Both the position numbers and the translations under genes were made by a program. 23,655 bases of DNA from Minisyncoccota bacterium (GTDB lineage Bacteria; Patescibacteriota; Minisyncoccia; Minisyncoccales; Minisyncoccaceae), in NCBI GenBank assembly GCA_041649895.1, contig JBAZMG010000006.1, positions 1 through 23,655 on the forward strand, read 5' to 3'. The notes beneath the pieces are model-generated. The model had not been told where the DNA came from and made no database searches. It saw nothing but the letters and a program-made list of their open reading frames with translations. Positions 3,128 to 18,483 of the stretch are shown piece by piece. Numbering within the stretch: the stretch's first letter is position 1; every line of letters begins with the position of its first letter.

Positions 3128-3300
3128 GGGCTTAATCCTTTTACAAATGATTAAGGGCGGAGCCGACGGCTTGATTGTACTCAATCACGGGCGCAGGGTT
3201 GACGAACCCGAGCCGGGCCTGAGGAAATTTTCAACAGAAAATTATCTGAAGGACGAGCCGGGACTTGAGCAAAACTTCAACAGGAGCTTATATGAAGGAA
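3128..3300 (+). repeat. Cluster of GC-rich structured modules (candidate ncRNA or leader) just upstream of the pilin array
   Basis: Hairpins CTTAATC/GATTAAG (3131-3155), AGCC-GAC-GGCT (3161-3171), TGATTG-TACT-CAATCA (3172-3187), GGGTT-GACG-AACCC (3196-3209), AATTTTC-AACA-GAAAATT (3226-3243). Invariant linkers GGGCGGAG and CGAGCCGGGCCTGAG are shared with the 181-247, 18599-18660 and 20213-20277 copies. Confidence 0.6.
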
Positions 3301-3320
3301 TCCTCAAACATTGAAAAACA

Positions 3321-4205: not shown

Positions 4206-4232
4206 TGTTTGGGTATTCGATACCCAAACATT
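4204..4232. repeat. Intergenic palindrome type 1 (13-bp arms) upstream of an A-type pilin gene
   Basis: AATGTTTGGGTAT-TCG-ATACCCAAACATT, starting inside the stop codon of paralog 1. Confidence 0.8.
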
Positions 4233-4237
4233 GAAAA

Positions 4238-5176
4238 ATGATGAATAGAAATATAAAAACAAATTTGGCATTTACATTGATAGAACTACTTGTGGTTATC
4301 GCAATCATCGGGATTTTATCTGCATTAATTATCATTGGGATGAGCTCGACAACACAGAAAGCTAGTGTTGCCAAGGCGCAGGTGTTTGCCAATTCTTTGC
4401 GCAATTCATTGATGGCGGATATGGTTTCTGAGTGGAAGCTTGATGGAAACACCAATGATACTTGGGCGGCCTCATTTGCAAACAACGGAACCTGGTGGGG
4501 AACGACCGCGCCGAATACCGTCGCAACCTATGGAACTGCGTCCGAATGCGTTTCCGGACAATGTATGGATTTTGATGGCGTGGATGATATGGTGGACTTT
4601 GGGAGCAACGCTTCTTTATCTATGGGAACAAAAGATCACACAGTCTCTTTATGGGTTAAGTTTGATAATGCGACCGCAACAGACATAGACACATTGGTTA
4701 TCTGTGGAGCAATGACGGGAACAGGGAAAGATGGGTATTGGATTACAAGACTTACCGATAGATTATACTTTTATTTTACTGATGGAGAAGGAGCAAATAC
4801 AAGAATTGCCGGCTATTTATCCGCAGCCGGAACATTAATTGCTAATAATTGGTATCAAATAACCGTAACTATGGATAGGGACGGAAATGTAACGGGATAT
4901 ATAAACGGAACATCGCAAATAAGTTGGGCTATTTCTCCTCAGCCTGGAGACGTACAAAATTCCATAAGCTTTCGAATGGGAGCTTTTACTACATCCCTGT
5001 ATCGTCTCGCCGGTAAAATGGATGAAGTGAGAATTTTTCACGCTATTACGACAATATCTCAAATAGAGCAAAACTACTTCGCGGGACTGAACAAACTTTT
5101 TGCCAACAGGGGAGTGGAAACATCAGAATACCAACAACGCTTAACTGAATTATCAAACAATTACGCACGGGATTAA
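4238..5176 (+). CDS. Pilin-like + LamG-domain protein (paralog 2, subtype A); real start may be the second ATG at 4241
   Basis: M(M)NRNIKTNLA|FTLIELLVVIAIIGILSALI; EWKLDGNTNDTW...CMDFDGVDDMVDFG...TVSLWVKFDNA...GKMDEVRIFHAI; preceded by palindrome 4204-4232. Confidence 0.85.
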   Translation: MMNRNIKTNLAFTLIELLVVIAIIGILSALIIIGMSSTTQKASVAKAQVFANSLRNSLMADMVSEWKLDGNTNDTWAASFANNGTWWGTTAPNTVATYGTASECVSGQCMDFDGVDDMVDFGSNASLSMGTKDHTVSLWVKFDNATATDIDTLVICGAMTGTGKDGYWITRLTDRLYFYFTDGEGANTRIAGYLSAAGTLIANNWYQITVTMDRDGNVTGYINGTSQISWAISPQPGDVQNSISFRMGAFTTSLYRLAGKMDEVRIFHAITTISQIEQNYFAGLNKLFANRGVETSEYQQRLTELSNNYARD

Positions 5177-5206
5177 AATGTTTGGGGGTTAAACCCCCAA
5201 ACATTT
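5176..5206. repeat. Intergenic palindrome type 2 (13-bp arms)
   Basis: AAATGTTTGGGGG-TTAAA-CCCCCAAACATTT. Confidence 0.8.
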
Positions 5207-5213
5207 AAAAACG

Positions 5214-6104
5214 ATGAATAGAAATATAAAAACAAAATTGGCATTTACATTGATTGAGCTACTTGTGGTAATTGCAATCATCGGGATTTTATCCGCTTTG
5301 ATCATTATTGGGATGAGCTCGACAACGCAGAAAGCAAACATTGCAAAATCACAAATATTTGCCAATTCTTTGCGCAATTCATTGATGGGGGACATGGTTT
5401 CGGAGTGGAAGCTTGACGAAGGAGCTGGCGATACAATATCTGATACGTGGGGCAGCAATAATGGAACAAAAGCTGGGGCAACATGGGAAGCAATAACAAC
5501 CAACTGCGTCTACGGCAAGTGCTTATCTTTTGATGGTGATGCTGATAATATAAATTTCGGAAATAAAACTGATTTTAATTTGGCTAGCACAAGCCACACT
5601 ATTTCGGTTTGGTTTAAAACAAGTACGACAACTACTGACCATATAATTAGTCGCTTTAACGGCGGAAGTCCCGGCGCTGGATATGTTATTTTTGTGTCCT
5701 CTGGAAAGGTTTGTTTTTCGGAAAGAGCAGACGGGGGAGACTTTCTTGCCCGCGATTCAGCGCTAACCTACAATGATAATTCTTGGCATTTTGTAACTTA
5801 CACGGTTGATATTTCTTTAAAAACAGGGAGGTTTTGCATTGATGGAACTTTTTTGCCCCTGGATACTTATACTGGAAACTTAATAAATTATAATAATAAT
5901 TTATATATCGGTGGACCACAGGTAGGATACTATTTTACTGGCCTAATAGACGATATACGCATATATGATGCCGCAATGCCAGCTTTCCAAATCAACGAAC
6001 AATATTACACCGGATTGAATAAACTTTTGGCAAACAGGGGAGTGGAAACATCTGAATACGAGCAAAGAATCGTAGAATTAAATTATAATTATGCAGAAAA
6101 TTAA
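5214..6104 (+). CDS. Pilin-like + LamG-domain protein (paralog 3, A-type leader, divergent body)
   Basis: MNRNIKTKLA|FTLIELLVVIAIIGILSALI; CLSFDGDADNINFG...TISVWFK...FTGLIDDIRIYDAAM; preceded by palindrome 5176-5206. Confidence 0.85.
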   Translation: MNRNIKTKLAFTLIELLVVIAIIGILSALIIIGMSSTTQKANIAKSQIFANSLRNSLMGDMVSEWKLDEGAGDTISDTWGSNNGTKAGATWEAITTNCVYGKCLSFDGDADNINFGNKTDFNLASTSHTISVWFKTSTTTTDHIISRFNGGSPGAGYVIFVSSGKVCFSERADGGDFLARDSALTYNDNSWHFVTYTVDISLKTGRFCIDGTFLPLDTYTGNLINYNNNLYIGGPQVGYYFTGLIDDIRIYDAAMPAFQINEQYYTGLNKLLANRGVETSEYEQRIVELNYNYAEN

Positions 6105-7047
6105 AATTAACGCATTTACATTGATAGAACTACTTGTGGTTATTGCAATCATCGGAATTTTATCTGCTTTAATTGTTATCGGGATGAGCTCGACAACGCA
6201 AAAAGCCAGTGTTGCAAAAGCGCAAGTATTTGCGAATTCTCTGCGCAATTCGTTGCTGGCGGATATGGTTTCGGAGTGGAAATTGGATGACGGGACTGGA
6301 AACAGCACCACAAAAGATTCCTGGGCTTCGGCTTTTGCCAATACGGGGACCTTGGGAACAGCGGCAGTAGGGGATGCAAGCGAGCCCACATGGCTAAGTA
6401 CCGGTTGTGTTTCCGGAAACTGTCTTTCGTTTGACGGCGCTGATGATTATGTTGATTTCGGAAATAATGCGTCCCTATCAATGGGAACTAAAGATCATAC
6501 TGTATCACTCTGGGTTAAGTTTGATAATGCAACAGCGCCCGCTCCTAATAATGCGGAAACGCTGGCTCGTTGTGGGGTCCAAGCTGCCGGAGTTGGGCGG
6601 GATGGATATTGGATTTATAGGACTGGGAGTAGTCTATTTTTTTATTTTTCTGATGGTTCGGCGGATAGCATAGGCGGCTCATTATCAGGGTCCGGGACAC
6701 TAATAGCTAACACTTGGTATAACATAGTTGTTGCACTCGATAGAGATATTTCTGCCTATATGTATATAAATGGAGTTAAACAAACAGGCTACTCATTAAA
6801 TATCGTACCACAAAATGGAGACGTACAAAATACATCCTTGTTAATGATTGGGGCAACTTCAGCTGGCTATGGTCGGCTTGACGGTCAAATGGATGAGGTA
6901 AGAATCTTTCACGCTATTACGACAATATCTCAAATAGAGCAGAACTACTTTGCCGGACTGAACAAACTTTTGGCAAACAGGGGAGTGGAAACGTCTGAAT
7001 ATGAGCAAAGAGTCGCGAATTTAACTTCAAACTATGCAAAGAATTAA
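6091..7047 (+). CDS. Pilin-like + LamG-domain protein (paralog 4, subtype B)
   Basis: MQKIKINA|FTLIELLVVIAIIGILSALI; EWKLDDGTGNSTTKDSWAS...CLSFDGADDYVDFG; ATG lies inside the previous gene's NYAEN-stop codons (14-nt overlap). Confidence 0.85.
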   Translation: MQKIKINAFTLIELLVVIAIIGILSALIVIGMSSTTQKASVAKAQVFANSLRNSLLADMVSEWKLDDGTGNSTTKDSWASAFANTGTLGTAAVGDASEPTWLSTGCVSGNCLSFDGADDYVDFGNNASLSMGTKDHTVSLWVKFDNATAPAPNNAETLARCGVQAAGVGRDGYWIYRTGSSLFFYFSDGSADSIGGSLSGSGTLIANTWYNIVVALDRDISAYMYINGVKQTGYSLNIVPQNGDVQNTSLLMIGATSAGYGRLDGQMDEVRIFHAITTISQIEQNYFAGLNKLLANRGVETSEYEQRVANLTSNYAKN

Positions 7048-7978
7048 AATTAACGCATTTACTTTGATAGAACTGTTGGTTGTAATAGCGATCATCGGTA
7101 TTTTATCTGCGTTGATTGTTGTGGGTATGAGCTCGGCGACGCAGAAAGCCAGTGTTGCAAAAGCGCAAGTATTTGCTAATTCTTTGCGGAATTCCTTAAT
7201 GGCGGATATGGTTTCCGAATGGAAATTAGATGACGGAACCGGAAACAGCACAACGAAAGATTCCTGGGCTTCGACTTTTACTAATACCGGGACACTGGGG
7301 ACTGCGACGGTAGGGGATGCAAGCGAGCCCACATGGCTAAGTACTGGTTGCGTTTCTGGAAACTGTCTATCTTTCGATGGAGCTGACGACTATGTTAATT
7401 TTGGCAATAACGCTTCATTGAGTATGGGAACAAAAGATCACACAATATCTTTATGGGTTGAATTTATTAATCCAACGGCACTGCAAGATGAAACAATGAT
7501 TCGCACGGGAGCTGGCGGTAGTGGAGCTGGCTATTGGATTTATAGATTTACCGGAACAAATAAATTAAGGTTTCTTTTTCATGACGGAGTTGGTTCGCAG
7601 GCATCCGGATATTTGTCGGCGGATGGCACATTAGTTGCTGGTATTTGGTATAATATAGCTATAATAATGGATAGGGATTCCAATGCCCAAGCTTATATAA
7701 ACGGGCAAATACAAACCAGTTACCCAATAGTTATATCTGGAAACCAAGGAACTATACAAAATGTTACAAATCTAATGGTTGGAGCGCAAGACGCGTCAAC
7801 ACGACGGCTTACCGGCAAAATGGATGAAGTAAAAATATTTCACGCAATACCGTCAATCTCCCAAATTCAACAAAACTATTACGCCGGACTGAACAAACTT
7901 TTGGCAAAAAGAGGGGTGGAAACATCAGAATATGAGCAAAGAGTCGCGGATTTAATTTCAAACTACGCAAAAGAATAA
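7034..7978 (+). CDS. Pilin-like + LamG-domain protein (paralog 5, subtype B)
   Basis: MQRIKINA|FTLIELLVVIAIIGILSALI; same architecture; 14-nt overlap with paralog 4. Confidence 0.85.
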   Translation: MQRIKINAFTLIELLVVIAIIGILSALIVVGMSSATQKASVAKAQVFANSLRNSLMADMVSEWKLDDGTGNSTTKDSWASTFTNTGTLGTATVGDASEPTWLSTGCVSGNCLSFDGADDYVNFGNNASLSMGTKDHTISLWVEFINPTALQDETMIRTGAGGSGAGYWIYRFTGTNKLRFLFHDGVGSQASGYLSADGTLVAGIWYNIAIIMDRDSNAQAYINGQIQTSYPIVISGNQGTIQNVTNLMVGAQDASTRRLTGKMDEVKIFHAIPSISQIQQNYYAGLNKLLAKRGVETSEYEQRVADLISNYAKE

Positions 7979-8005
7979 TGTTCGGGTATTCGATACCCAG
8001 ACATT
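7977..8005. repeat. Intergenic palindrome type 1 (one mismatch, one G-U)
   Basis: AATGTTCGGGTAT-TCG-ATACCCAGACATT. Confidence 0.75.
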
Positions 8006-8010
8006 GAAAA

Positions 8011-8955
8011 ATGATGAATAGAAATATAAAAACAAATTTGGCATTTACGTTGATTGAGCTATTGGTCGTAATAGCGATTATTGGTATTCTTTCGGCTTTG
8101 ATCGTTATTGGGATGAGCTCGACAACTCAAAAAGCTAGTGTTGCCAAGGGCCAAGTATTTGCTAATTCTTTACGCAATTCGTTAATGTCAGATATGGTCT
8201 CGGAGTGGAAATTGGATGGAAACACTAACGACACTTGGGCGGCCTCGTACGCGAACAACGGAACTTGGTCAGGTCCAACCGCGCCAAACACAGTCGCTAC
8301 TTATGGACCGGCAGCTGAATGCGTTTCCGGACAATGTATGGATTTTGATGGAGTGGACGATTTAGTTGATTTTGGAAATAACGCTTCGCTATCAATGGGA
8401 ACAAAAGATCACACAGTCTCTTTATGGATTAAGTTTGACAATGCAACAGCCCCACAACACGAAGTTTTGATTATTAGTGGCGGCAACATTGTTGCTCCTG
8501 GATATGCTGGTTATGATATTTTAAGATACACCGGAATGAGTCGACTATATGTTGAATTTTCCGATGGCTCGGCAAATAATGTCGGTGCCTATTTATCCGC
8601 ATCGGGAACATTAGTATCTAATATTTGGTATAATATAGTAGTAATTTTTGACAGAGACGGAGTTGCCAAGGCATATATTAACGGATTGTCACAGGCGGGA
8701 ACATTAAATATATCGGTTCAACCGGGCAATGTACAAAATATTTACAACTTAAGGTTGGGGGCGTGGACACCGTCCCAATTTCGTCTTGCTGGTAAAATGG
8801 ATGAAGTGAGAATATTTCACGCGATAACAACACTTTCCCAAATTCAGCAAAACTACTACGCGGGACTGAACAAGCTTTTTGCAAACAGGGGAGTGGAAAC
8901 ATCCGAATATCAACAAAGGATCGTAGAATTAAATTCGAATTATGCAAAGAATTAA
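8011..8955 (+). CDS. Pilin-like + LamG-domain protein (paralog 6, subtype A); start may be 8014
   Basis: M(M)NRNIKTNLA|FTLIELLVVIAIIGILSALI; N-terminal ~150 aa near-identical to paralog 2; preceded by palindrome 7977-8005. Confidence 0.85.
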   Translation: MMNRNIKTNLAFTLIELLVVIAIIGILSALIVIGMSSTTQKASVAKGQVFANSLRNSLMSDMVSEWKLDGNTNDTWAASYANNGTWSGPTAPNTVATYGPAAECVSGQCMDFDGVDDLVDFGNNASLSMGTKDHTVSLWIKFDNATAPQHEVLIISGGNIVAPGYAGYDILRYTGMSRLYVEFSDGSANNVGAYLSASGTLVSNIWYNIVVIFDRDGVAKAYINGLSQAGTLNISVQPGNVQNIYNLRLGAWTPSQFRLAGKMDEVRIFHAITTLSQIQQNYYAGLNKLFANRGVETSEYQQRIVELNSNYAKN

Positions 8956-9895
8956 AATCAACGCATTCACATTAATAGAACTACTTGTGGTTATTGCAAT
9001 CATCGGGATTTTGTCTGCATTAATTATCATTGGGATGAGCTCGACAACACAGAAAGCTAGTGTTGCCAAGGCGCAAGTGTTCGCTAATTCTCTACGTAAT
9101 TCATTGATGTCGGATATGGTTTCGGAGTGGAAGCTTGATGATGGGACAGGAAACAGCACAACGAAAGATTCCTGGGCTTCGACTTTTACAAATACGGGGA
9201 CCTTGGGAACCGCAGCAGTGGGGGATGCAAGCGAGCCCACATGGCTAAGTACTGGTTGCGTTTCCGGAAACTGTCTTTCTTTTGACGGCACCGACGATTA
9301 TGTTGATTTTGGGAGCAATGCGTCTTTATCTATGGGGACTAAAGACCATACTGCGTCATTCTGGGTTAAATTTGATAATGCGGTAGCAATAGAAAATAAT
9401 ACACTGATTAAATGCGGGGCCTTCGGCGCCTCTCTTGGATCAGACGGATACTGGCTTGTTAGATTAAACGGTACAAACAAACTATATTGTTATTTCTCCG
9501 ACGGAGAAACAACAACATTGCTTGGTAATTATTTATCCGCGGATGGTTCTTTGGTTGCCGATACTTGGTACAATATTGTTGTAATGTTCGACAGGAGCGG
9601 AGTGGCTCAAGCATACATAAATGGCGTAATACAATCAGGAACACTAAACATATCATCACAAACAGGAGACGTGCAAAATAGTAGAAGTTTTACTATTGGA
9701 GCCTGGTCAGCAACACTACATCGATCCGCTGGCAAAATGGACGAAGTACGAATATTCCACGCGATTACGACACTTTCTCAAATTCAACAAAACTACTTCG
9801 CAGGACTGAACAAACTTTTGGCTAATGGGGAAGTGGAAACATCAGAATACCAACAACGCTTAACTGAATTATCAAACAATTACGCACGGGATTAA
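8942..9895 (+). CDS. Pilin-like + LamG-domain protein (paralog 7, subtype B N-terminus with the paralog-2 type C-terminus)
   Basis: MQRIKINA|FTLIELL...; the last 64 nt of the CDS plus the downstream hairpin are 100% identical to 5113-5210. Confidence 0.85.
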   Translation: MQRIKINAFTLIELLVVIAIIGILSALIIIGMSSTTQKASVAKAQVFANSLRNSLMSDMVSEWKLDDGTGNSTTKDSWASTFTNTGTLGTAAVGDASEPTWLSTGCVSGNCLSFDGTDDYVDFGSNASLSMGTKDHTASFWVKFDNAVAIENNTLIKCGAFGASLGSDGYWLVRLNGTNKLYCYFSDGETTTLLGNYLSADGSLVADTWYNIVVMFDRSGVAQAYINGVIQSGTLNISSQTGDVQNSRSFTIGAWSATLHRSAGKMDEVRIFHAITTLSQIQQNYFAGLNKLLANGEVETSEYQQRLTELSNNYARD

Positions 9896-9925
9896 AATGT
9901 TTGGGGGTTAAACCCCCAAACATTT
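9895..9925. repeat. Intergenic palindrome type 2 (identical to 5176-5206)
   Basis: AAATGTTTGGGGG-TTAAA-CCCCCAAACATTT. Confidence 0.8.
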
Positions 9926-9931
9926 AAAACA

Positions 9932-10870
9932 ATGAATAGAAATATAAAAACAAAATTGGCATTTACATTGATAGAATTATTGGTCGTGATTGCAATCATC
10001 GGGATACTTTCGGCTTTGATCATTATTGGGATGAGTTCGACGACACAGAAAGCTAGTGTTGCCAAATCGCAGGTGTTTGCCAATTCATTGCGCAATTCTT
10101 TGATGGCGGATATGGTTTCAGAATGGAAATTGGACGGGAATACTAACGATACTTGGGCGTCTTCAAATGCGAACAACGGAACGTGGTCGGGACCAACCGC
10201 GCCGAATGCCGTCGCTACTTACGGGACGGCAGCCGAATGCGTCTCCGGACAATGTATGGATTTTGACGGTGTGGATGATGTAGTTGATTTTGGAAATAAC
10301 GCTTCGTTATCAATGGGAACAAAAGATCACACAGTCTCTATTTGGGTTAAATTCGATAACGCATCACCCCCAACAGAAGAAGAAACATTAATTTTTTGCG
10401 GCGGAACAGTGGCCGCGACAGAAGGCTATTGGATCAGGAGACAAATTGGAGGAACAGGAATTTATTTTTGTTTTAACGATGGCTCGGCAACAAGGGCTAA
10501 CGGTGCTTTATCAGCGAACGGAACTTTAATTAATAATATTTGGTATAATATAGTAATAACAATGGACAGAGATTCTAATGCCCAAGCATATATAAATGGA
10601 CAAAAACAAACTGGTTATGTTGTTAGTCTCTCCTCTTGGCAAACCGACATACAGAATACTTATAATTTCCAAATTGGTGGATTTGGAGCTGTTTATACAA
10701 TGGCGGGAAAAATTGATGAAGTAAGAATATTCAATGCGATAACAACACTTTCTCAAATTCAACAAAATTACTTTGCAGGACTGAACAAACTTTTTACCAA
10801 CAAGGGAGTGGAACCGTCTGAATACCAAAAAGAGGTCACGAATTTAATTTCAAACCATGCAAAGAATTAA
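9932..10870 (+). CDS. Pilin-like + LamG-domain protein (paralog 8, subtype A)
   Basis: MNRNIKTKLA|FTLIELLVVIAIIGILSALI; preceded by palindrome 9895-9925. Confidence 0.85.
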   Translation: MNRNIKTKLAFTLIELLVVIAIIGILSALIIIGMSSTTQKASVAKSQVFANSLRNSLMADMVSEWKLDGNTNDTWASSNANNGTWSGPTAPNAVATYGTAAECVSGQCMDFDGVDDVVDFGNNASLSMGTKDHTVSIWVKFDNASPPTEEETLIFCGGTVAATEGYWIRRQIGGTGIYFCFNDGSATRANGALSANGTLINNIWYNIVITMDRDSNAQAYINGQKQTGYVVSLSSWQTDIQNTYNFQIGGFGAVYTMAGKIDEVRIFNAITTLSQIQQNYFAGLNKLFTNKGVEPSEYQKEVTNLISNHAKN

Positions 10871-11816
10871 CAAAGCATTTACATTAATTGAGCTATTGGT
10901 TGTGATAGCGATTATTGGTATTCTTTCGGCTTTGATCGTTATTGGGATGAGCTCAACAACACAGAAAGCCAGTGTTGCCAAGGCGCAAGTGTTTGCGAAT
11001 TCTCTGCGCAATTCGTTGCTGGCGGATATGGTTTCGGAGTGGAAATTGGATGACGGGACTGGAAACAGCACCACAAAAGATTCGTGGGCTTCGGTTTATG
11101 CCAATACGGGAACATTGGGAACAGCGGCGGTGGGGGACGCGAGCGAGCCAACATGGCTAAGTACCGGTTGCGTTTCCGGAAACTGCCTTGATTTTGACGG
11201 CGCTGACGATTATGTTGATTTTGGAAGCAATGCGTCTTTATCTATGGGGACTAAAGACCATATTGCGTCATTCTGGGTTAAATTTGATAATGCAGTGGCG
11301 GGCGCGCAACCCGAAACGCTAATAGTTTGCGGTTCAGTTACCGGTGGGGCGACTGGAGACGATGGTTATTGGATTGTACGCTATCAAGGAACAAGCAAAA
11401 TAAGAGGATATTTTTCTGATGGTTCGGCGGCATATATCGGCGGAGATTTATCTGCTAATAGTGTTTTTGTCGCTAATACTTGGTATAACATAGTAACAAC
11501 TTTTGATAGAGATGGAGTTGTTCAGGCATATGTTAATGGATTAAAACAAACGGGTTATTCAATAAACATTGCTCCTCAACAAGGAGATGTACAAAATTAT
11601 ATGAATTTGCGAATTGGAGCCTATTCGGCAACCGGACACCGTCTCGATGGTCAAATGGATGAGGTAAGAATCTTTCACGCCATAACAACGCTGTCTCAAA
11701 TAAAGCAAAACTATTACGCAGGACTGAACAAACTTTTTGCCAAAAACTCCCTAAATAGGGTAGAATATGAGTATAGGATGGCGGAATTACAAACTTCATC
11801 TTTAGCAAACAAATGA
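10857..11816 (+). CDS. Pilin-like + LamG-domain protein (paralog 9, subtype B, divergent C-terminal tail)
   Basis: MQRINKA|FTLIELLVVIAIIGILSALI; 14-nt overlap with paralog 8; its TGA stop overlaps the next gene's ATG (ATGA at 11813-11816). Confidence 0.85.
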   Translation: MQRINKAFTLIELLVVIAIIGILSALIVIGMSSTTQKASVAKAQVFANSLRNSLLADMVSEWKLDDGTGNSTTKDSWASVYANTGTLGTAAVGDASEPTWLSTGCVSGNCLDFDGADDYVDFGSNASLSMGTKDHIASFWVKFDNAVAGAQPETLIVCGSVTGGATGDDGYWIVRYQGTSKIRGYFSDGSAAYIGGDLSANSVFVANTWYNIVTTFDRDGVVQAYVNGLKQTGYSINIAPQQGDVQNYMNLRIGAYSATGHRLDGQMDEVRIFHAITTLSQIKQNYYAGLNKLFAKNSLNRVEYEYRMAELQTSSLANK

Positions 11817-12370
11817 TGCCTTATTTATTAGCTATTGCCTTATTCTTTCTTCCGGCTTACGTGGCGAATACCACGCCGCCTTTGGCAAACCGATTTAATA
11901 TTCTAAACAGCTTGTATAAGCCGATAGACAACAACAAGACAATAAACGGAATGCCGATCTTAGGCACACACAAAAGCTGGCGGGGATTGGTTTTGGAAAT
12001 CATATTCTGTACTGTCCTAACAGGAGCGATGTTTATTCTAAACAAGCAGTTCGGGTGGGGGATTTATGAATCACTCGGATTCGCCTACGAAAAGATCAAT
12101 GGCTTTGTTTTCGGTCTGATCTTTGGCGTTGGTATAGTTTTTGGCGATCTACTCTTCGCCTTTATCAAGCGCAGACTGCGCCTTAGGCCCGGGTTTCCTT
12201 TTATCCCGTTCGATCAGATCAACTATGTTATCGGTGCCTTTATTTTCACCGAACCAATCGCGCATTTGGGAATAAAGTTTTGGATCATTCTTGCCGGAAT
12301 AACCCTGATTATACACATTGTTTTCAATCGTCTTGGGTATAATATGGGGTTGCACAAAGCAAAATGGTAA
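11813..12370 (+). CDS. carS: CDP-archaeol synthase family protein (CarS / DUF46-like CDP-alcohol-forming cytidylyltransferase)
   Basis: 185-aa membrane ORF. By recollection of archaeal CarS it aligns block by block: FLPAYVANTTPPL, PIDNNKTINGMPILGTHKSWRGL, FGDLLFAFIKRRLRLRPGFPFIPFDQINYVIGA, C-terminal HIVFNRLGYNMGLHKAKW. Confidence 0.8.
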   Translation: MMPYLLAIALFFLPAYVANTTPPLANRFNILNSLYKPIDNNKTINGMPILGTHKSWRGLVLEIIFCTVLTGAMFILNKQFGWGIYESLGFAYEKINGFVFGLIFGVGIVFGDLLFAFIKRRLRLRPGFPFIPFDQINYVIGAFIFTEPIAHLGIKFWIILAGITLIIHIVFNRLGYNMGLHKAKW

Positions 12371-12391: not shown

Positions 12392-12413
12392 CCCTACCAT
12401 ATATATGGTAGGG
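12392..12413. terminator. Perfect 22-bp palindrome after carS (possible terminator, no T-tract on + strand)
   Basis: CCCTACCATAT/ATATGGTAGGG. Confidence 0.3.
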
Positions 12414-12471: not shown

Positions 12472-13155
12472 ATGCAAAATCTATTTAATATAATTTCCGC
12501 GAGTGCCGAGCGAACATTATCAATGTTAACGCAAAATTTAGTCACAAACGCCGCAAATTTGATCGGTGCTGTTTTGGTATTTATTATCGGCTGGCTTATC
12601 GCGAAGAAAATAAAGGGATTCTTCACCGACCTTTTAAACAAGATCCGCCTGAACCAAATGGCGAAATCTCTGGGATGGGAACCGTTTTTTGACAAATATG
12701 ACACTCGCCTCAATGTCCCAAAATTTTTCGGAGCGATCATTGAATTATTTTTTGTTTTACTGTTTTTAACAATTTCTTTTGACATCTTGGGCCTAGCGCA
12801 AGTAAACGCATTCCTTTTGACAATCATCAATTATTTCCCGAACATCTTTATTTCAATGCTGATCTTTATCTTCGCGGTGTTTGTTGCCGACTTTTCAAAA
12901 AAGATCGTGCTCGTCAGCTTGAACAAAGAAAAAATAACCTATTCGGGAATATTGGGCGACAGCATTGCCTGGATCACGTGGATTATGGCGATACTCGCCA
13001 TCCTGTATCAATTAAATATAGTCCCGACAATAGTGCTGACTATATTTATTGGATTCGTCGCCTTGATTGTTATTGTTTTTGGATTGGCATTCGGATTGGG
13101 CGGAAGGGAATTTGCTAAAAAAATATTAGAAGACTTGGAGAACCGGGCACGATAA
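12472..13155 (+). CDS. Membrane protein with conserved TM-helix repeats (MscS-N-terminal-like); function unknown
   Basis: 227-aa ORF with 4-5 hydrophobic segments; NLIGAVLVFIIGWLIAKKI-type helix followed by a basic linker, repeated. Confidence 0.45.
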   Translation: MQNLFNIISASAERTLSMLTQNLVTNAANLIGAVLVFIIGWLIAKKIKGFFTDLLNKIRLNQMAKSLGWEPFFDKYDTRLNVPKFFGAIIELFFVLLFLTISFDILGLAQVNAFLLTIINYFPNIFISMLIFIFAVFVADFSKKIVLVSLNKEKITYSGILGDSIAWITWIMAILAILYQLNIVPTIVLTIFIGFVALIVIVFGLAFGLGGREFAKKILEDLENRAR

Positions 13156-13189: not shown

Positions 13190-15001
13190 TTGATATTTAT
13201 GGATACAATAACGTACAAAGAACTACAAAAAATGATCCTCTTTTCCGGGGAGAGGGTTAATAGAGATAAAGAACAAATAAACAAGATCAATGTATTTCCG
13301 GTTCCGGACCAGGACACGGGCTCTAATTTGGCTGCGACATTAAAGGGAATAAAAGAAGCGATTGAAGGCAAAGAATTCGGCTCAATGGAAGAATTCGCGA
13401 ACACCGTTTTGGACAGCGCCCTGACTGCGGCGCAAGGCAATGCCGGAATTATTTACACCGGATTTTTGGCCGGGTTTTTGCCCGCGATAAGCGACGTGGA
13501 AGAAGTTGATGCCAAAAAGCTTGGCAATGCTTTTAAGCTCGGATACGAGCGAGCAAAAGACTCAATCCAAAATCCGAAAGAGGGAACTATTTTAGATGTT
13601 GTCCACGCTTTTGCCGAAACTTTTAACGAGTTATCAGAAGAAAAAGAAGATATCATCGAAATATTTTACGAATCTTTCGGGAAGGCCAACCAGGCCCTGC
13701 TTGATACGCCGAATAAAATGGAATTACTGAAAAAGGCCGGCGTGGTTGATGCCGGGGGATTGGGATTTTTAATGATCCTTGAAACCTACCTTGATACGCT
13801 AAAGGAACAGACCGTGGAAAAGGTCGCGGCAAAACCCTTCCTTGCTCCGGGCGAAGAATCAGCCACGAGAAAGTTCGTCCAAATTCTATCAAACCGATAC
13901 GAAGTGGTCGCCCTGTTGGCAAATCCGAACTTAAAAGAAAAAGAGATCAGGGACAAACTGAAAAATCTGGGCAATTGCCTTGATATTATCCAAATCGCGA
14001 ACCGAATAAAGATACACATCCACACCGATGACCCTTATGAGACCAGAGATATTATTTCCAATATGGGTACGGTCGAAAATCTGAGAATTCAGGATATGGC
14101 GAGGGAAGTGGTGGGAGAAGAGTCGATGGAAAACGTTTCCATCGGCATTGTAATCGATGAACGCGCGGGATTGAGCCAAAAAATAATCCAGCATTATGAT
14201 ATTGAAGTAATCCCGTTCCGTATCACCTGGCCGGAAGAACAAAACTTGCCCGGGCACAACGTGTGCGAAAAAATAAAAGAAGCGAAAAAGAAGGGATTGA
14301 ACACCAAACCGAAGATCTCTTCCATTTCTCCGGAATTCTTTATGGAATCGTACAAAAAACAATTGGAAAAATTTGAAACTATTATCTGCATTGTCAGTAG
14401 CTCCAAACTTTCCGACAACTACAATTCCGCCCTGAAAGCGCGGGAAATGCTAAATTGGAATATGAGAGAAAGGGTTTTTGTCGTTGATTCGAAAAACATC
14501 AGCGCCGGACAATCCCTTGTGGTTTTGGAAGCGATCGAGCTCATCCGGGAACAGAGAAAAATAAAAGAAATAAAAGAACGCTTGGAAGTGGCGATTCCTC
14601 AGATCAATCTGCTCGGCATTTTAAAAAACGCGGCGTGGTGGAAAAAAGACAATCCGACCGCGAAGTTTTGGTTTACCAAAGAAAAACCGCAAGATTCTTT
14701 TTGGCTCATAGAAACAAAAGATGGAAAAATCAATCCAACGGAAAAAGTAAGATCAAATGATTTCGCCGACGTCTTGTTCAAAAAAATAGAACGGGCCGCG
14801 CGAAGAGACTTGCGAGAAGGTAAAAAGATCAGAGTGGTTATCGCGCACGCCGACAGCCTGGATCAAGCGGAAAAGCTCAAAGAAAAATTAAAGACCACGA
14901 AACGGGCTGATATTTCCTTTATCAGTATCACAGATCCGGTCACAAGCATAAACGCTTGCCCGGACAGCCTTATAGTGGCGTGGATCGTTCACCCGAGTTA
15001 A
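13190..15001 (+). CDS. DAK2-domain protein of the YloV/FakA (fatty acid kinase) type with a C-terminal DegV-like domain; start may be 13199
   Basis: NVFPVPDQDTGSNLAATL and KKAGVVDAGGLGFLMILE (Dak2/YloV hallmarks). The C-terminal half (from VSIGIVIDERAGL) is paralogous to the two downstream DegV genes. Confidence 0.75.
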   Translation: MIFMDTITYKELQKMILFSGERVNRDKEQINKINVFPVPDQDTGSNLAATLKGIKEAIEGKEFGSMEEFANTVLDSALTAAQGNAGIIYTGFLAGFLPAISDVEEVDAKKLGNAFKLGYERAKDSIQNPKEGTILDVVHAFAETFNELSEEKEDIIEIFYESFGKANQALLDTPNKMELLKKAGVVDAGGLGFLMILETYLDTLKEQTVEKVAAKPFLAPGEESATRKFVQILSNRYEVVALLANPNLKEKEIRDKLKNLGNCLDIIQIANRIKIHIHTDDPYETRDIISNMGTVENLRIQDMAREVVGEESMENVSIGIVIDERAGLSQKIIQHYDIEVIPFRITWPEEQNLPGHNVCEKIKEAKKKGLNTKPKISSISPEFFMESYKKQLEKFETIICIVSSSKLSDNYNSALKAREMLNWNMRERVFVVDSKNISAGQSLVVLEAIELIREQRKIKEIKERLEVAIPQINLLGILKNAAWWKKDNPTAKFWFTKEKPQDSFWLIETKDGKINPTEKVRSNDFADVLFKKIERAARRDLREGKKIRVVIAHADSLDQAEKLKEKLKTTKRADISFISITDPVTSINACPDSLIVAWIVHPS

Positions 15002-15051
15002 ACAATTTTGCTTTGCAAAATTAGCGCATAGCGCTGTTTAACCGGGTAAAA

Positions 15052-15086
15052 TAAGAATAAAGAATCAGGAATCAAGAATTAAGAAT
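15052..15086 (+). repeat. Five in-phase heptamer repeats NARGAAT upstream of the first degV gene
   Basis: TAAGAAT AAAGAAT CAGGAAT CAAGAAT TAAGAAT. Confidence 0.7.
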
Positions 15087-15132
15087 AAAAACAGGGAACG
15101 ATTCCAATTCATAAAAATTAGATATTAAATCA

Positions 15133-16026
15133 ATGGAAACAGAAAACCAAAACAAAAAATTAATTGGCATCGTGGCCGACGAGGCCGTTGACCTGCCTGA
15201 TTCAATTGTACAAGAAAACGAGATATCGCTCGTAAAATTCAAATTGGATTTCGAAGAACTAAAGGATGTTCCCGGCAATGTTTATGAAAAAATGCGCGAG
15301 GGAGAGAGAAGGGGACTCAAGACCATTGCCAAGACATCACAACCATCCATTAATGACTTTTTAGGCGCGTACCGGGAAAAACTGAAAAGATTTGAAGAGA
15401 TAATTTGCTTCACCATATCGGGAAAACTATCAGGAACTTTTAACTCCGCTTTACAGGCAACAAAATTTTTACCAAAAGAAGCCCAAGATAAAATTCATCT
15501 GGTTGATACATTGAACGCAACCGGGGGAGAAGGTCTTGTAGCTTTGTGGGCAGCCGATATGATCAAAGAAGCAAAATTGAAAGCCGGAGAGATCGCGGAA
15601 ACAATACGGAAAAATGTTTCCAATTTCAAACTGATCGGGATCTATGGAACACCGAAATGGCTTGAAGCGAGCGGACGCTTGCCAAAATTTTTGCCGGCAC
15701 CCTTGAGGCAAGCGGAAAAAATGAACCTCAAGCCTATTTTTGCCCTGAAAAACGGAAAGATTACTTTTATAAGCATTCGAAAAAACTTAAATGGCATCGC
15801 GAATACTCTATTCCAAGAGTTTGAAAAGCAAACTCTGGCGGCGCGCAATCAAGGAAAAAAGATCAGAGCCGCGATCACTCACGGCGACAACCCGGCTGGA
15901 GCGGAAGAACTGAAAAATTTGGTCTCAAGTTTGGAAAATGTAAAAGTGGAGTTTATAAGCCTGGCTTGTTTTCCGATCGGAGGACATGTCGGCCCGGAAT
16001 CATTAGTGCTTTCCTGGCAACAATAA
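15133..16026 (+). CDS. DegV family fatty-acid-binding protein (FakB-like)
   Basis: IGIVADEAVDLP, TSQPSINDFLGAY, ISGKLSGTFNSALQA; 297 aa. Confidence 0.85.
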   Translation: METENQNKKLIGIVADEAVDLPDSIVQENEISLVKFKLDFEELKDVPGNVYEKMREGERRGLKTIAKTSQPSINDFLGAYREKLKRFEEIICFTISGKLSGTFNSALQATKFLPKEAQDKIHLVDTLNATGGEGLVALWAADMIKEAKLKAGEIAETIRKNVSNFKLIGIYGTPKWLEASGRLPKFLPAPLRQAEKMNLKPIFALKNGKITFISIRKNLNGIANTLFQEFEKQTLAARNQGKKIRAAITHGDNPAGAEELKNLVSSLENVKVEFISLACFPIGGHVGPESLVLSWQQ

Positions 16027-16096
16027 CCCCCACCTTTTTAAAAAAGATGGGGGCAAAAAAGAATAAAAATAAAGAAACACTAATTGCATAAAATAT

Positions 16097-16972
16097 ATGA
16101 GTATCAAAATCATCGTAGGCGAAAGCGCCCCCACGACTCCGGATATTGTGGCAAAGTACGGTTTTGCGACCGTACCGTTTAAGATCGATTGGCCCGAGTT
16201 CGACACCATTAAGGGCAATACGCTTTTTCAAAAAATGCGCGAAGCGAAAAAGCAAGGCATCAAAACCACCCCCAAAACTTCTCAGCCGTCTATAGGCATA
16301 TACAAAAAAGCTTTTGACGAAGCCCTTGTCGACAACGAATATATTCTCGCGATCACTATCAGCTCCGGCATCTCGGGAACTTACAACTCCGCCATTCAAG
16401 CAAAAAAGATGTTCAGTGAAGACGCGCAAAAAAAGATCTATGTTTTTGATACATTTAACGCCGATGCCGCGGAAAGCTTGTTTGCCATTAAAGCGGGGGA
16501 TATGGCGGTGCAAGAAAAGACCATTGATGAAGTAATGGCAAAATTGGAAGAATTAAAACCATCAGCCAAACTGTACGGATTTTTGGACGACCCTTATTGG
16601 CTTGAGGCCGGAGGCAGGATCAGCCATGCCGTAGCCGTAATAATGGCGCAAATGCAAAAGATCGGAATGCGGCCTCTTTTGTCAATGAAAGACGGGGTTG
16701 TTAAGCCGGCGAATCTGAAAATGCAAGCCAAGGACACGGCCGATGCTTTGTTTAAACAGCTGGAAAGCATTGTAAAAGATCCTCTCGCGGACGGGAAAAA
16801 GGTAAGCGTTGCCATAAGCCACGCGGACAATCCCGGAGAGGCCGAAAACTTGAAAAAAATGATCGAAGAAAAATATCCTAGCGCTAAAATAGAATTCGTG
16901 ACCGAGACCGGTCCGGTGATCGGCGCGCACATCGGACCCGGATCATTAATTTGCTGCTGTTTAATAGATTAA
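16097..16972 (+). CDS. DegV family fatty-acid-binding protein (FakB-like), second paralog
   Basis: TSQPSIGIYKKAF, ISSGISGTYNSAIQA, GPVIGAHIGPGS; 291 aa. Confidence 0.85.
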   Translation: MSIKIIVGESAPTTPDIVAKYGFATVPFKIDWPEFDTIKGNTLFQKMREAKKQGIKTTPKTSQPSIGIYKKAFDEALVDNEYILAITISSGISGTYNSAIQAKKMFSEDAQKKIYVFDTFNADAAESLFAIKAGDMAVQEKTIDEVMAKLEELKPSAKLYGFLDDPYWLEAGGRISHAVAVIMAQMQKIGMRPLLSMKDGVVKPANLKMQAKDTADALFKQLESIVKDPLADGKKVSVAISHADNPGEAENLKKMIEEKYPSAKIEFVTETGPVIGAHIGPGSLICCCLID

Positions 16973-17105: not shown

Positions 17106-17810
17106 ATGATCTTTAATTTAATTGCGATCGCTTTAATTTCTTACATTCTGGGATCAATTCCTTTTTCTCTGGTTTTTGTCAAATTGTTTACGAAAAAAAA
17201 CCTGCACGAACTGGGATCAAAAAACGCAGGAGCATTAAATACCCTGAGGATCGTTGCCAAAGAAAAAGGGAAGGTTTGGGGCGTCTTATCTTTTCTTTTG
17301 GTCGGAATTCTGGACGCAAGCAAGGGTGTTTTCGCCGTCTTAATCGCCAAAAGTTATTTTTTCCCGATTCTTTTGCAAACATCAGCGGAAATAACAATGC
17401 CCTGGCCGACCATTGTCGCCATTATCGCGTTCTTTGCCGTACTCGGACACAATTATTCCATTTTCTTAAAATTCAAGGGTGGAAGAGGGGCTGCCACCTT
17501 ATTTGGTATTCTTTTGTATTTAAACGTTACGGCAGCTCTCGGTATTCTCGGCTTTGTTCTTTTGTTTATTTTTTTAGGAGAACTGCTGGCCGGACACAAA
17601 TTAAACAAAAAATTCGTAAGCGCCGCGATATCAAACCAGATCATTGGCCGGCTTTTGGGAGAAATTGTCGGGCTGTTCTGGATGTACACTATTGATCCTA
17701 TGGTGTTTTATATCGCCGCTTTGCCGATTGTATTAATTGTTTTCGCGCACAAAGACAGGCTTGACGAACAAATTAAAAAGATCAAAGATAAAACCTATCT
17801 AAAAGATTAA
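17106..17810 (+). CDS. plsY: PlsY-family acyltransferase paralog 2 (divergent)
   Basis: LGSIPFSLVFVKL, GSKNAGALNTLR, LDASKG, GHNYSIFLKFKGGRGAAT; 234 aa. Confidence 0.7.
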   Translation: MIFNLIAIALISYILGSIPFSLVFVKLFTKKNLHELGSKNAGALNTLRIVAKEKGKVWGVLSFLLVGILDASKGVFAVLIAKSYFFPILLQTSAEITMPWPTIVAIIAFFAVLGHNYSIFLKFKGGRGAATLFGILLYLNVTAALGILGFVLLFIFLGELLAGHKLNKKFVSAAISNQIIGRLLGEIVGLFWMYTIDPMVFYIAALPIVLIVFAHKDRLDEQIKKIKDKTYLKD

Positions 17811-17814
17811 ACAA

Positions 17815-18483
17815 ATGCAAACATATATTTTGTATCTATTGTTGCTTATAGTCTCTTATTTGGCCGGATCTATTCCTTTCAGTTATATTATTACCCGTCT
17901 CTCCACGCATAAAAATATTTTGGAGATCGGATGGAAAAAAAGCTCGGGGTCCAATGTTTTAAAAAACGTGGGCAAATGGCAGGGAGTACTTGTTTTTCTT
18001 TTGGATGTGGCCAAAGGATTTTTTGTCATCTGGCTCGCGAGAGAACTCGGCACGCCAGCATACTTTCAATCGTTGTGCGGAGTCGCCGCGGTAGTGGGAC
18101 ACAATTGGTCTATATTTTTAAAGGGGAGCGGGGGCAGAGGATTAGCCGCTCTGGTCGGAGCCTTGCTTGCTTTCTCTCCTTTGTTTCTCGCGATAATCTT
18201 ACTCCCGACAATTCTTTTAACTTTTCTTTGGACCGCCTCGATCGGCACACTTTTATCTCTCGCGTTCGGAATCGCGATTGGATTCGGCTGTGTTTATTGC
18301 AAGCCAATGGGCCTTATGCTACTTATATCCTTGACCCCGATATTTATAAAACGCTTAAGCCCGATAAAAGAGATCCCCGGAGCAAAGAACAAAGCGGAAC
18401 TGATCAAAAATCGTTTGCTTTTTGACCAAGACACTGTTCCGCCTTTACGAATAACAAAGTATTTTAATAAGAAAAAGGCTTAA
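17815..18483 (+). CDS. plsY: PlsY-family acyltransferase paralog 3 (most divergent)
   Basis: AGSIPFSYIITRL, LDVAKG, GHNWSIFLKGSGGRGLAA; motif 1 degenerate (KKSSGSNVLKN); 222 aa. Confidence 0.6.
   Translation: MQTYILYLLLLIVSYLAGSIPFSYIITRLSTHKNILEIGWKKSSGSNVLKNVGKWQGVLVFLLDVAKGFFVIWLARELGTPAYFQSLCGVAAVVGHNWSIFLKGSGGRGLAALVGALLAFSPLFLAIILLPTILLTFLWTASIGTLLSLAFGIAIGFGCVYCKPMGLMLLISLTPIFIKRLSPIKEIPGAKNKAELIKNRLLFDQDTVPPLRITKYFNKKKA

Follow-up and report, generated by a model that had tools for sequence, protein, structure and literature searches.

A CarS-family membrane protein conserved in a fatty-acid-salvage gene cluster of Patescibacteria as a candidate analogue of CdsA

From the window, i.e., the complete stretch of 23,655 nucleotides analysed here from a CPR (Paceibacteria) bacterium with a tiny genome, a gene for a small CarS-like membrane protein can be deduced, which is located between a long array of prepilin genes and a FakA-DegV/DegV/DegV block spanning positions 13190–16972 (Table 1). 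An earlier note on this DNA had described the setting of the gene as bacterial, and this is borne out by the presence of S15, PNPase, YraN, PlsY, prepilin and bacterial tRNA genes. Its count of three PlsY paralogs accompanying a Fak/DegV block was likewise confirmed. Promoter and terminator scans of the window only gave matches at or near chance level and were uninformative on operon structure; the terminator scan showed no plus-strand terminator between the last pilin gene and the CarS-like gene.

Table 1. Features of the CarS-like gene locus, with positions counted from the first nucleotide of the window.
Feature	Position	Strand	Properties
PlsY (bona fide)	2470–3102	+	TIGR00023 166.4 bits (cut-off 137.2); ancestral immediate upstream partner of the CarS-like gene
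Nine tandem prepilin (N_methyl) + LamG (Laminin_G_3) paralogs	3321–11816	+	Domain matches; the ninth is ORF 10857–11816
ATGA start/stop overlap, pilin 9/CarS-like gene	11813–11816	+	TGA of ORF 10857–11816 lies inside ATGA
CarS-like gene	11813–12370	+	185 aa, ATG start, five predicted TM helices; PF01864
Perfect palindromic hairpin	12392–12413		In the gap between the CarS-like and membrane protein genes; terminator-like for the minus strand only
PF05552-type multi-helix membrane protein	12472–13155	+	PF05552; public gene calls start at 12523 (210 aa)
FakA (Dak2 + middle domain) fused to DegV/FakB domain	13190–15001	+	Fatty-acid kinase making acyl-phosphate (domain assignment)
Two DegV/FakB fatty-acid-binding proteins	15133–16026, 16097–16972	+	Domain matches
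Two divergent PlsY paralogs	17106–17810, 17815–18483	+	PF02660; TIGR00023 about 101 bits (under the 137 cut-off)

The CarS-like protein matches PF01864 with 91 bits (E = 1.2e-25; cut-off 22 bits) over residues 4–185, covering model positions 4–175 of 175, an assignment far beyond chance, whereas PF01148 (CdsA) reaches only 18.2 bits (cut-off 24) and is restricted to residues 53–123. Its AF2 model (pLDDT 91.6) shows helices at residues 2–27, 56–80, 97–121, 133–150 and 154–177, and a Foldseek search returned ApCarS (PDB 5GUF) as the sole significant match (probability 1.00, TM 0.65/0.75, 166 columns), while the similarity to the CdsA structure 4Q2G is weak (E = 1.7, TM 0.33). The whole-length CarS/DUF46 homology claimed in the earlier note thus holds at the level of both family profile and fold, and the motifs it had listed are all found, namely LPAYVAN (13–19), PID (37–39), ILGTHKSWRG (49–58), FGDLLFAFIKRR (110–121) and the C-terminal W185. 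Hence, the ORF encodes a genuine full-length CarS-family protein in a bacterium. Against the CarS equivalog model NF003114 (CDP-2,3-bis-(O-geranylgeranyl)-sn-glycerol synthase), the protein scores 111.7 bits and its clade relatives 124–145 bits, all under the cut-off of 148; this cut-off, however, discriminates poorly because named DPANN CarS proteins also fall narrowly short of it (146.8 and 135.5 bits). The designation as an archaeal-type CarS consequently stands with respect to the PF01864 family, but has to be narrowed to a Patescibacteria-specific clade below the equivalog cut-off, in which the substitutions S116A and D137N are fixed.

In comparison with archaeal CarS, such as ApCarS and AfCarS, the CarS-like protein belongs to the same Pfam family over its full length and adopts the same five-helix fold of about 180 aa, and N19, PxD39, GxxK54xxR57G, GD112, K119R120 and D134Q135 are common to both, although it is only 22% identical to ApCarS. 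CdsA (PF01148; TmCdsA, PDB 4Q2E/4Q2G) is a member of the same superfamily with, presumably, the same reaction type, and shares the K(T/S)W-G, GD and KR motifs with the CarS-like protein by hhalign. In contrast to the latter with its 185 aa and five helices, CdsA enzymes comprise about 270–285 aa and nine helices, including N-terminal and dimerisation domains. CarS and CdsA have been described as homologous proteins with superimposable active sites (PMC9385802; PMC7018664).

Across 82 loci, a conserved gene order is apparent, running from PlsY over the CarS-like gene, the PF05552 membrane protein, FakA-DegV and two DegV genes to two further PlsY genes. PlsY lies directly 5′ of the CarS-like gene in 45 of these loci, with a 4-nt ATGA overlap of both genes in eight relatives, and the PF05552 protein follows 3′ in 71, making it a near-obligate partner. 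A FakA-DegV gene lies no more than 10 kb away from the CarS-like gene in 66 of the 82 loci, and a PlsY gene in 62. In Nealsonbacteria-type genomes, the CarS-like gene adjoins a CDP-alcohol phosphatidyltransferase, fatty acid synthesis genes and PlsC; a divergent pair of CDP-alcohol phosphatidyltransferase and PHP phosphoesterase genes abuts it in 19–21 loci, with FabG, FabA/K and PlsC downstream. In a separate bacterial lineage, an operon beside PBP1 combines a CDP-OH transferase, an unknown gene, the CarS-like gene and a flippase-like gene, and elsewhere in the PF01864 family fusions of CarS with a CDP-OH transferase or with PAP2 occur. Homologues of the PF05552 protein retrieved by sequence search are all annotated as hypothetical and all come from Paceibacteria. 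Foldseek comparison of its AF2 model (pLDDT 75.9) with the PDB gave no significant fold match, the closest being a weak resemblance to the transmembrane region of MscS (probability about 0.5, TM about 0.3).

The start-stop overlap with pilin paralog 9 reported in the earlier note is indeed present, but the coupling with the pilin array that the note derived from it is no feature of the system. Only in the window is the CarS-like gene directly preceded by a pilin gene; in none of the 81 related loci is this the case, their upstream neighbour being PlsY (45), the PHP/CDP-OH-transferase pair (21) or YraN (6). Functional coupling to the pilins, for example through a lipid donor that the enzyme would provide for modifying pilins or assembling pili, might be suggested by the overlap itself and by LamG-prepilins lying inside or beside the cluster in 12 of the 82 loci. 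In the other 11 of these, however, the pilins occupy two different positions, 70 loci lack them altogether, and the window pilins are closer to one another (41–76% identity) than to those of any other locus (40% at most), so that such coupling is very improbable and largely refuted by the synteny census. The GC content of the array equals that of its surroundings. The nine pilin genes represent a lineage-specific tandem expansion that arose in situ and was inserted at the ancestral PlsY–CarS junction. The ATGA overlap implies co-transcription in this lineage and no functional link, i.e., the linkage is a local accident outside the conserved system.

The CarS-like protein falls into a tight clade that is represented in more than 110 species genomes and confined to Patescibacteria, mainly Paceibacteria; hence, the gene is no rarity. 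NCBI and JGI records already name members of this clade 'CDP-archaeol synthase', while full-text searches for CarS, CdsA or PF01864 in CPR, Patescibacteria, Parcubacteria or Nealsonbacteria found no paper discussing the gene. In 84 of 86 copies from more than 80 species genomes, the reading frame is uninterrupted and its motifs are conserved, and 33 columns are invariant among 38 clade sequences of 45–63% identity; this conservation suggests that the gene is under selection. Among the homologous records, some bear the label 'Pacearchaeota archaeon', which could point to an assembly or binning error by which archaeal DNA entered a bacterial contig. However, these records show bacterial synteny (PlsY, YraN and FakA-DegV, plus a CCA-adding enzyme gene in L049), the window shows an even GC content throughout, and the same gene order recurs in three complete Nealsonbacteria chromosomes and in the closed genome of the cultured Minisyncoccus archaeiphilus, by which contamination is refuted and its residual probability negligible. 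The nearest named canonical relatives of the clade are from DPANN archaea, but a DPANN origin is weakly indicated because it relies on an unbootstrapped NJ tree with two named representatives, both DPANN.

By its motif, the clade can be designated as the 'F-A...DQxN' group of PF01864. It retains the residues common to the whole family (N19, D39, K54, R57, D112, K119, R120, D134 and Q135), but departs from the signature GDxx(K/E)SFxKR...DQxD, of which GD, KR and DQ are kept. The Ser of GDxxxSxxKR, present in 144 of 146 other family representatives, is replaced by Ala (S116A), and the second Asp of DQxD, present in 132 of 146, by Asn (D137N). Both substitutions are fixed in 84 of the 86 clade copies, and a third fixed change, K/E115F, likewise separates the clade from archaeal CarS. 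By motif equivalence with the 'DRxD' of CdsA, position 137 corresponds to the catalytic Asp249 of TmCdsA, which forms one half of a Mg/K-binding dyad and has been described as 'conserved in all CDS sequences' (PMC7018664). Replacing Asp by Asn at the other dyad position inactivates the CdsA of S. mitis, whereas eukaryotic CDS enzymes tolerate Gly there (PMC7018664); accordingly, the metal dyad is not immutable.

Due to these clade-wide changes, chemistry or substrate may differ from that of canonical family members. Dolichol and phytol kinases belong to the same superfamily as CarS and CdsA. Instead of a cytidylyltransferase, the protein might therefore be a CTP-dependent lipid kinase, an enzyme acting on lysolipids or with another nucleotide, or a catalytically inactive partner of the PF05552 protein, and its tight coupling to this uncharacterised membrane protein as well as the reported enrichment of lysolipids in CPR (PMC7242380) could be read in this way. 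We consider such a change unlikely, as all remaining polar positions common to the family, among them D39, D112, D134, K54 and K119/R120, are kept and the CDP-alcohol transferases encoded next to or fused with the protein family depend on a CDP-lipid as donor. Besides, the tolerance of eukaryotic CDS enzymes for Gly speaks against it, and an Asn residue can still ligate Mg2+.

As the family assignment and the DPANN relatives would suggest, the protein could also be a true CDP-archaeol synthase acting on isoprenoid ether lipids (archaetidic acid/DGGGP), either scavenged from an archaeal host or derived from unlinked genes, and leading to archaeal-type or hybrid lipids. In this direction point the adjacent CDP-alcohol transferase of Nealsonbacteria, for which archaetidylinositol-phosphate synthase is the best-scoring match (110.5 bits, compared with 64.6 bits for PIP synthase), and the fact that three lineages with a demonstrated life on methanogens (PMC13293708) carry the CarS-like gene, namely Minisyncoccus archaeiphilus (L039), Microsyncoccus archaeolyticus (L036) and Nealsonbacteria (L061/L066). 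In most of the 82 loci, however, the gene shares an operon with PlsY and Fak, hence with acyl-phosphate and fatty acid rather than isoprenoid metabolism; no GGGPS, DGGGPS or UbiA-type gene was found in any neighbourhood inspected, where PlsY, Fak and PlsC are encoded instead. Moreover, the clade occurs widely in Paceibacteria from groundwater and soil that have no known host, and its catalytic motif is unlike that of archaeal CarS. A role as CDP-archaeol synthase is thus rather improbable. A scenario combining several of these elements, in which an archaeal-derived, DPANN-like CarS replaced CdsA in the host-dependent Paceibacteria and acquired relaxed or new specificity through the Asp-Asn dyad, so that scavenged phosphatidate-type lipids, including archaetidic acid in methanogen parasites, would be activated and hybrid membranes formed with the archaetidylinositol-phosphate-synthase-like partner, is regarded as a distinctly long shot.

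With moderate confidence, we interpret the CarS-like protein as a five-helix membrane CTP:lipid-phosphate cytidylyltransferase in a fatty-acid-salvage cluster, doing the job of CdsA on an archaeal-family scaffold. An unusual CDP-activation step for scavenged lipids, as proposed in the earlier note, is the best reading of a CarS-like gene residing among Fak/PlsY lipid-salvage genes, and it has become much stronger than from a single window because the synteny is conserved across 82 loci. In the proposed route, the FakA-DegV fusion and the DegV proteins would convert scavenged fatty acids to acyl-phosphate, which PlsY would use for acylating glycerol-3-phosphate. A second acylation, by PlsC in Nealsonbacteria-type clusters and possibly by the divergent PlsY paralogs here, would give phosphatidate, from which the CarS-like enzyme would form the CDP-activated lipid (CDP-diacylglycerol) with CTP, and a CDP-alcohol phosphatidyltransferase might finally attach head groups using this CDP-lipid. 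Judging from synteny, the enzyme would hence take the same position as CdsA, between PlsY/PlsC and the CDP-alcohol phosphatidyltransferase. Its most likely function is the CDP-activation of acyl phosphatidate, i.e., the likely substrate differs from the DGGGP of archaeal CarS, and it would have to be catalytically competent despite carrying Asn at the Asp249 equivalent. A replacement of CdsA would be compatible with searches using EcCdsA as query, in which only CarS-like genes were matched within about 1.2 Mb of related loci (±10 kb of 85 loci) and on the 32.8-kb source contig. Similarly, no K00981/PF01148 entry was found in the approximately 40% of the M. archaeiphilus gene table examined, in which uppS is present without its usual cdsA neighbour. 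Two findings count against an acyl substrate: characterised archaeal CarS enzymes show strong discrimination against acyl phosphatidate, and a cdsA mutant of E. coli is not complemented by AfCarS (PMC9385802). S116A and D137N were also weighed against the CdsA-analogue reading, as was the finding that the window's own contig (32.8 kb) encodes neither a CDP-alcohol transferase nor PlsC.

In Firmicutes (Staphylococcus/Streptococcus), the FakA/FakB-PlsY system incorporates exogenous fatty acids by an acyl-phosphate route to phosphatidate without requiring PlsX or ACP. The cluster described here likewise encodes a FakA kinase domain, DegV/FakB binding proteins and PlsY, but differs in the fusion of FakA to a DegV domain, in having three PlsY paralogs and an interposed conserved PF05552 membrane protein, and probably in a CDP step catalysed by a CarS-family instead of a CdsA-family enzyme. 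Whereas archaeal CarS would be expected with ether-lipid genes, the CarS-like gene is thus part of a bacterial acyl-lipid (Fak/PlsY) operon. Archaeal-family enzymes of membrane lipid synthesis in bacteria, bearing on the 'lipid divide', have also been described for FCB-group bacteria (Ca. Cloacimonetes), in which GGGPS/DGGGPS are present, CarS is absent and CdsA is proposed to be used (Villanueva et al., 2021, PMC7852524). The situation found here is the reverse, with a CarS-like protein accompanying acyl-lipid genes.

CPR/Patescibacteria are thought to lack the capacity for synthesising membrane lipids themselves, and it has yet to be explained how they build membranes from material of their hosts. 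The presence of PlsY and PlsC without PlsX in CPR has been noticed previously, with the route left unresolved (Probst et al., 2020). The locus, occurring in more than 80 genomes, may encode a compact salvage route, in which a fused FakA-FakB supplies acyl-phosphate to PlsY paralogs and an archaeal-family enzyme whose catalytic dyad is altered contributes the CDP-activation step. As the CarS-like enzyme is present in the cultured M. archaeiphilus, the question is experimentally testable. If acyl phosphatidate is indeed used, the enzyme would represent a natural case of a CarS scaffold that handles bacterial lipids, with a bearing on the 'lipid divide', and the routine database label 'CDP-archaeol synthase' would need correcting.

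The 185-aa ORF assigned to the CarS/DUF46 family in the earlier note was found with its ATG start, every CarS motif listed there can be located in its sequence, and a match to Pfam PF01864 ("CarS-like") spans the whole protein (E = 1.2e-25, 91 bits, cut-off 22), whereas the CdsA family PF01148 stays sub-threshold (18.2 versus 24). The NCBIfam CarS equivalog model gives 111.7, under its cut-off of 148, a shortfall of little weight since named DPANN CarS proteins (146.8 and 135.5) also slightly miss this value. The AlphaFold2 model, based on an alignment of 38 homologues, is confident (pLDDT 91.6, pTM 0.88) and has five long helices; when used for searching the PDB, it returned Aeropyrum pernix CarS (5GUF) as the only significant match (probability 1.00; TM 0.65/0.75 over 166 columns, 22% identity) and TmCdsA as a weak one. 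The surroundings are bacterial (YraN, PlsY, prepilins, S15, PNPase and four tRNAs).

Features of the window around the CarS-like gene (domain limits in residues)
Feature	Position	Strand	Remarks
PlsY paralogs (three)	2470-3102; 17106-17810; 17815-18483		first separate, last two tandem
Prepilin genes (nine, tandem)	3321-11816		each with prepilin N-terminal methylation motif and LamG/concanavalin-like domain
CarS-like gene	11813-12370	+	185 aa, ATG start
PF05552-type all-helical membrane protein	12472-13155		gene-called start 12523; about 216 aa in relatives
FakA-DegV fusion	13190-15001		Dak2 37-201, FakA middle 236-306, complete DegV/FakB fatty-acid-binding domain 317-599

In a 90%-clustered database, 489 relatives were obtained at E ≤ 1e-3; the best 120 share 45-63% identity with the CarS-like protein, and the named sequences among these stem from Paceibacteria/Parcubacteria MAGs, labeled by NCBI or JGI as "CDP-archaeol synthase", the name that public annotation already gives to clade proteins. 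Scanning one genome per GTDB species revealed a relative in 110 genomes, and all 80 loci kept are from Patescibacteria (80/80). An exhaustive 50%-cluster search gave 1328 family clusters at E ≤ 1e-3 versus three at E ≤ 1e-30, hence the Paceibacteria group is a tight clade within a large family. Regarding the archaeal origin raised earlier, the group is monophyletic in a neighbor-joining tree, and those few of its nearest canonical relatives that are named are from DPANN archaea (Nanoarchaeota, Woesearchaeota), a placement that is weakly supported. Family members also occur in other bacterial lineages. In one independent lineage (locus L087, 3472-6297), an operon adjoining PBP1 encodes a CDP-OH transferase, an unknown 192-aa protein, a CarS-family protein with the motif N-S...S and a flippase-like LPG_synthase_TM protein, while locus L088 has a canonical K-S...D CarS among RecG, DksA and histidine-kinase genes. 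Bacterial CarS-family genes thus extend beyond the Paceibacteria clade. Loci DAOLWP010000014.1 (L011) and DAOSDM010000008.1 (L049), together with many binchicken MAG loci recorded as "uncultured Candidatus Saccharibacteria", bear the public labels "Candidatus Pacearchaeota archaeon" or "Saccharibacteria" but show the Paceibacteria gene order, with YraN and/or PlsY upstream and the PF05552 protein plus FakA-DegV downstream, reaching S15 and PNPase on long enough contigs. These labels are probably wrong and may reinforce the "archaeal" annotation.

The decisive evidence is synteny, established by calling ORFs in all loci (82 loci) and assigning them through searches with proteins from the window and from Nealsonbacteria. 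Two architectures can be distinguished. The first (about 50 loci, including the closest relatives of the window) runs CCA-adding enzyme, (YraN), PlsY, CarS-like, PF05552 protein, FakA-DegV fusion, DegV, DegV, PlsY, PlsY, T4SS pilin, S15 and PNPase. The second (Nealsonbacteria and relatives) comprises PlsY, DegV, a divergently transcribed pair of CDP-alcohol phosphatidyltransferase and PHP phosphoesterase, CarS-like, PF05552 protein, FakA-DegV, thiolase, FabG, FabA/FabK, FabK and two PlsC. The downstream neighbor is the PF05552 protein in 71 loci, FakA-DegV is kept alongside in 66, and upstream lies PlsY (45), the PHP/CDP-OH pair (21) or YraN (6). Homologues of the PF05552 protein are all "hypothetical" and all from Paceibacteria; its AlphaFold2 model (pLDDT 76) has no significant match in the PDB and a weak likeness to the MscS transmembrane region. 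A role as partner subunit or as transporter of lipids or fatty acids is conceivable. The three PlsY paralogs and the Fak/DegV block noticed earlier are indeed present. The separate PlsY exceeds the equivalog cut-off (166 versus 137 bits), while the tandem pair, at about 101 bits each, falls below it. No PlsC is encoded close by in the clusters that have this pair, and the Nealsonbacteria type of cluster, where the pair is missing, carries two PlsC genes; the divergent copies might act as sn-2 acyltransferases that depend on acyl-phosphate. In Nealsonbacteria CP179890/CP179889 (8674-20558), the CDP-alcohol transferase, PHP phosphoesterase, thiolase and FabG adjoin the CarS-like gene together with a FabA-FabK fusion, FabK and two PlsC genes. 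The thiolase, best matched by the generic thiolase-domain subfamily model NF004720, may be archaeal-type, and the whole looks like an ACP-independent fatty-acid/phospholipid module of mixed archaeal and bacterial ancestry.

The start codon of the CarS-like gene does share ATGA with the TGA stop of ORF 10857-11816, the last of the nine prepilin genes, as had been stated. Co-transcription, as proposed earlier, is implied by this for the window, but a conserved functional link is not: a LamG prepilin lies directly upstream in the window only, LamG prepilins occur in 12 of the 82 loci at three different places, and in eight relatives it is PlsY that overlaps the CarS-like start by a 4-nt ATGA. The nine pilins share 41-76% identity among themselves and at most 40% with any pilin elsewhere, and the GC content of the array equals that of the rest of the window. 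Two N-terminal types, MMNRNIKTNLAFTLIE... and MQRIKINAFTLIE..., alternate and a 14-nt overlap recurs (6091, 7034, 8942, 10857), indicating that a unit of two genes was duplicated several times, possibly diversifying adhesins. Taken together, the array arose by expansion in situ and interrupts the ancestral PlsY-CarS junction; its linkage to the CarS-like gene is incidental. PlsY and the first pilin are separated by 218 nt, in which lies a 55-aa ORF (3147-3314) that matches no family and is annotated as a gene in the public record; it may be left over from the insertion. The gap behind the CarS-like gene is unusually long (101 nt; the median among relatives is 35 nt) and contains a perfect palindrome, CCCTACCATATATATGGTAGGG (12392-12413), followed by a T-run on the minus strand only, where no gene ends.

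Together, the conserved neighbors suggest a consistent route for the salvage of acyl lipids. Acyl-phosphate would come from the FakA kinase domain, in its fusion with DegV/FakB, and from the free DegV proteins, PlsY would use it for acylating glycerol-3-phosphate, and PlsC, in the second architecture, would finish phosphatidate. CDP-alcohol phosphatidyltransferases require a CDP-activated lipid, and as the CarS-like gene is the only candidate in these clusters for making it, a CdsA-analogous role is suggested. Support comes from the L087 operon, from CDP-OH-transferase+CarS and PAP2+CarS fusions within the family, and from E. coli CdsA as query retrieving over about 1.2 Mb of related loci only the CarS-like genes themselves, with no PF01148 gene listed on the whole 32.8-kb source contig. 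Most likely, with moderate confidence, the protein is a CDP-diacylglycerol synthase analogous to CdsA. An unusual CDP-activation step for scavenged lipids, as proposed earlier, is what fits this conserved Fak/PlsY setting best.

In a motif comparison between 19 sequences of the clade and 146 representatives from the rest of the family, the core polar residues N19, D39, K54, R57, D112, K119, R120, D134 and Q135 are kept, but three positions are fixed differently: 115 (K/E elsewhere, Phe in the clade), 116 (Ala versus Ser in 144 of the 146) and 137 (Asn, turning DQxD into DQxN, versus Asp in 132). The resulting F-A...DQ(T/I)NY signature is found in 84/86 copies. In TmCdsA, the catalytic metal-binding dyad is Asp219/Asp249 (PMC7018664), in the PDB sequence (20-residue tag offset) the Asp of "GD" and the second Asp of "DRxD". 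By hhalign, HKSW, GD and KRR of the clade align with GKTW, GD and KRE of CdsA; the D[Q/R]xD equivalence, just past the alignment end, is a motif-level inference. Given this mapping, the clade would keep the Asp219 equivalent (D112) and bear Asn at the Asp249 position, which is conserved across all CDS enzymes according to a review (PMC7018664). Because of this Asn, and because characterised archaeal CarS enzymes select against acyl phosphatidate (PMC9385802), metal use, substrate or even chemistry may have changed. That the clade performs a different reaction, as the fixed substitutions might suggest, is considered unlikely. The same selectivity bears on a genuine CDP-archaeol or host-lipid enzyme, for which the Nealsonbacteria CDP-alcohol transferase scoring best against archaetidylinositol-phosphate synthase and the parasitism of several carriers on methanogens (PMC13293708) can be adduced; this is rated quite improbable.

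A literature search found no paper dealing with CarS-family genes of CPR or with the operon around them. Cloacimonetes show the reverse situation, GGGPS/DGGGPS without CarS (Villanueva et al., PMC7852524). For Nealsonbacteria, PlsY and PlsC without PlsX were described by Probst et al., CDP activation not being addressed (PMC7242380); the FakA-DegV fusion would be an acyl-phosphate source for PlsY without PlsX and may answer this puzzle. The earlier observation holds, and its interpretation finds partial support. The gene is a Patescibacteria-specific CarS-family variant with a remodelled catalytic motif. It lies in a conserved bacterial cluster for fatty-acid salvage and phospholipids, where it most likely provides the step equivalent to CdsA, a result that is surprising for specialists of the lipid divide and of CPR and open to direct testing in an organism in culture.
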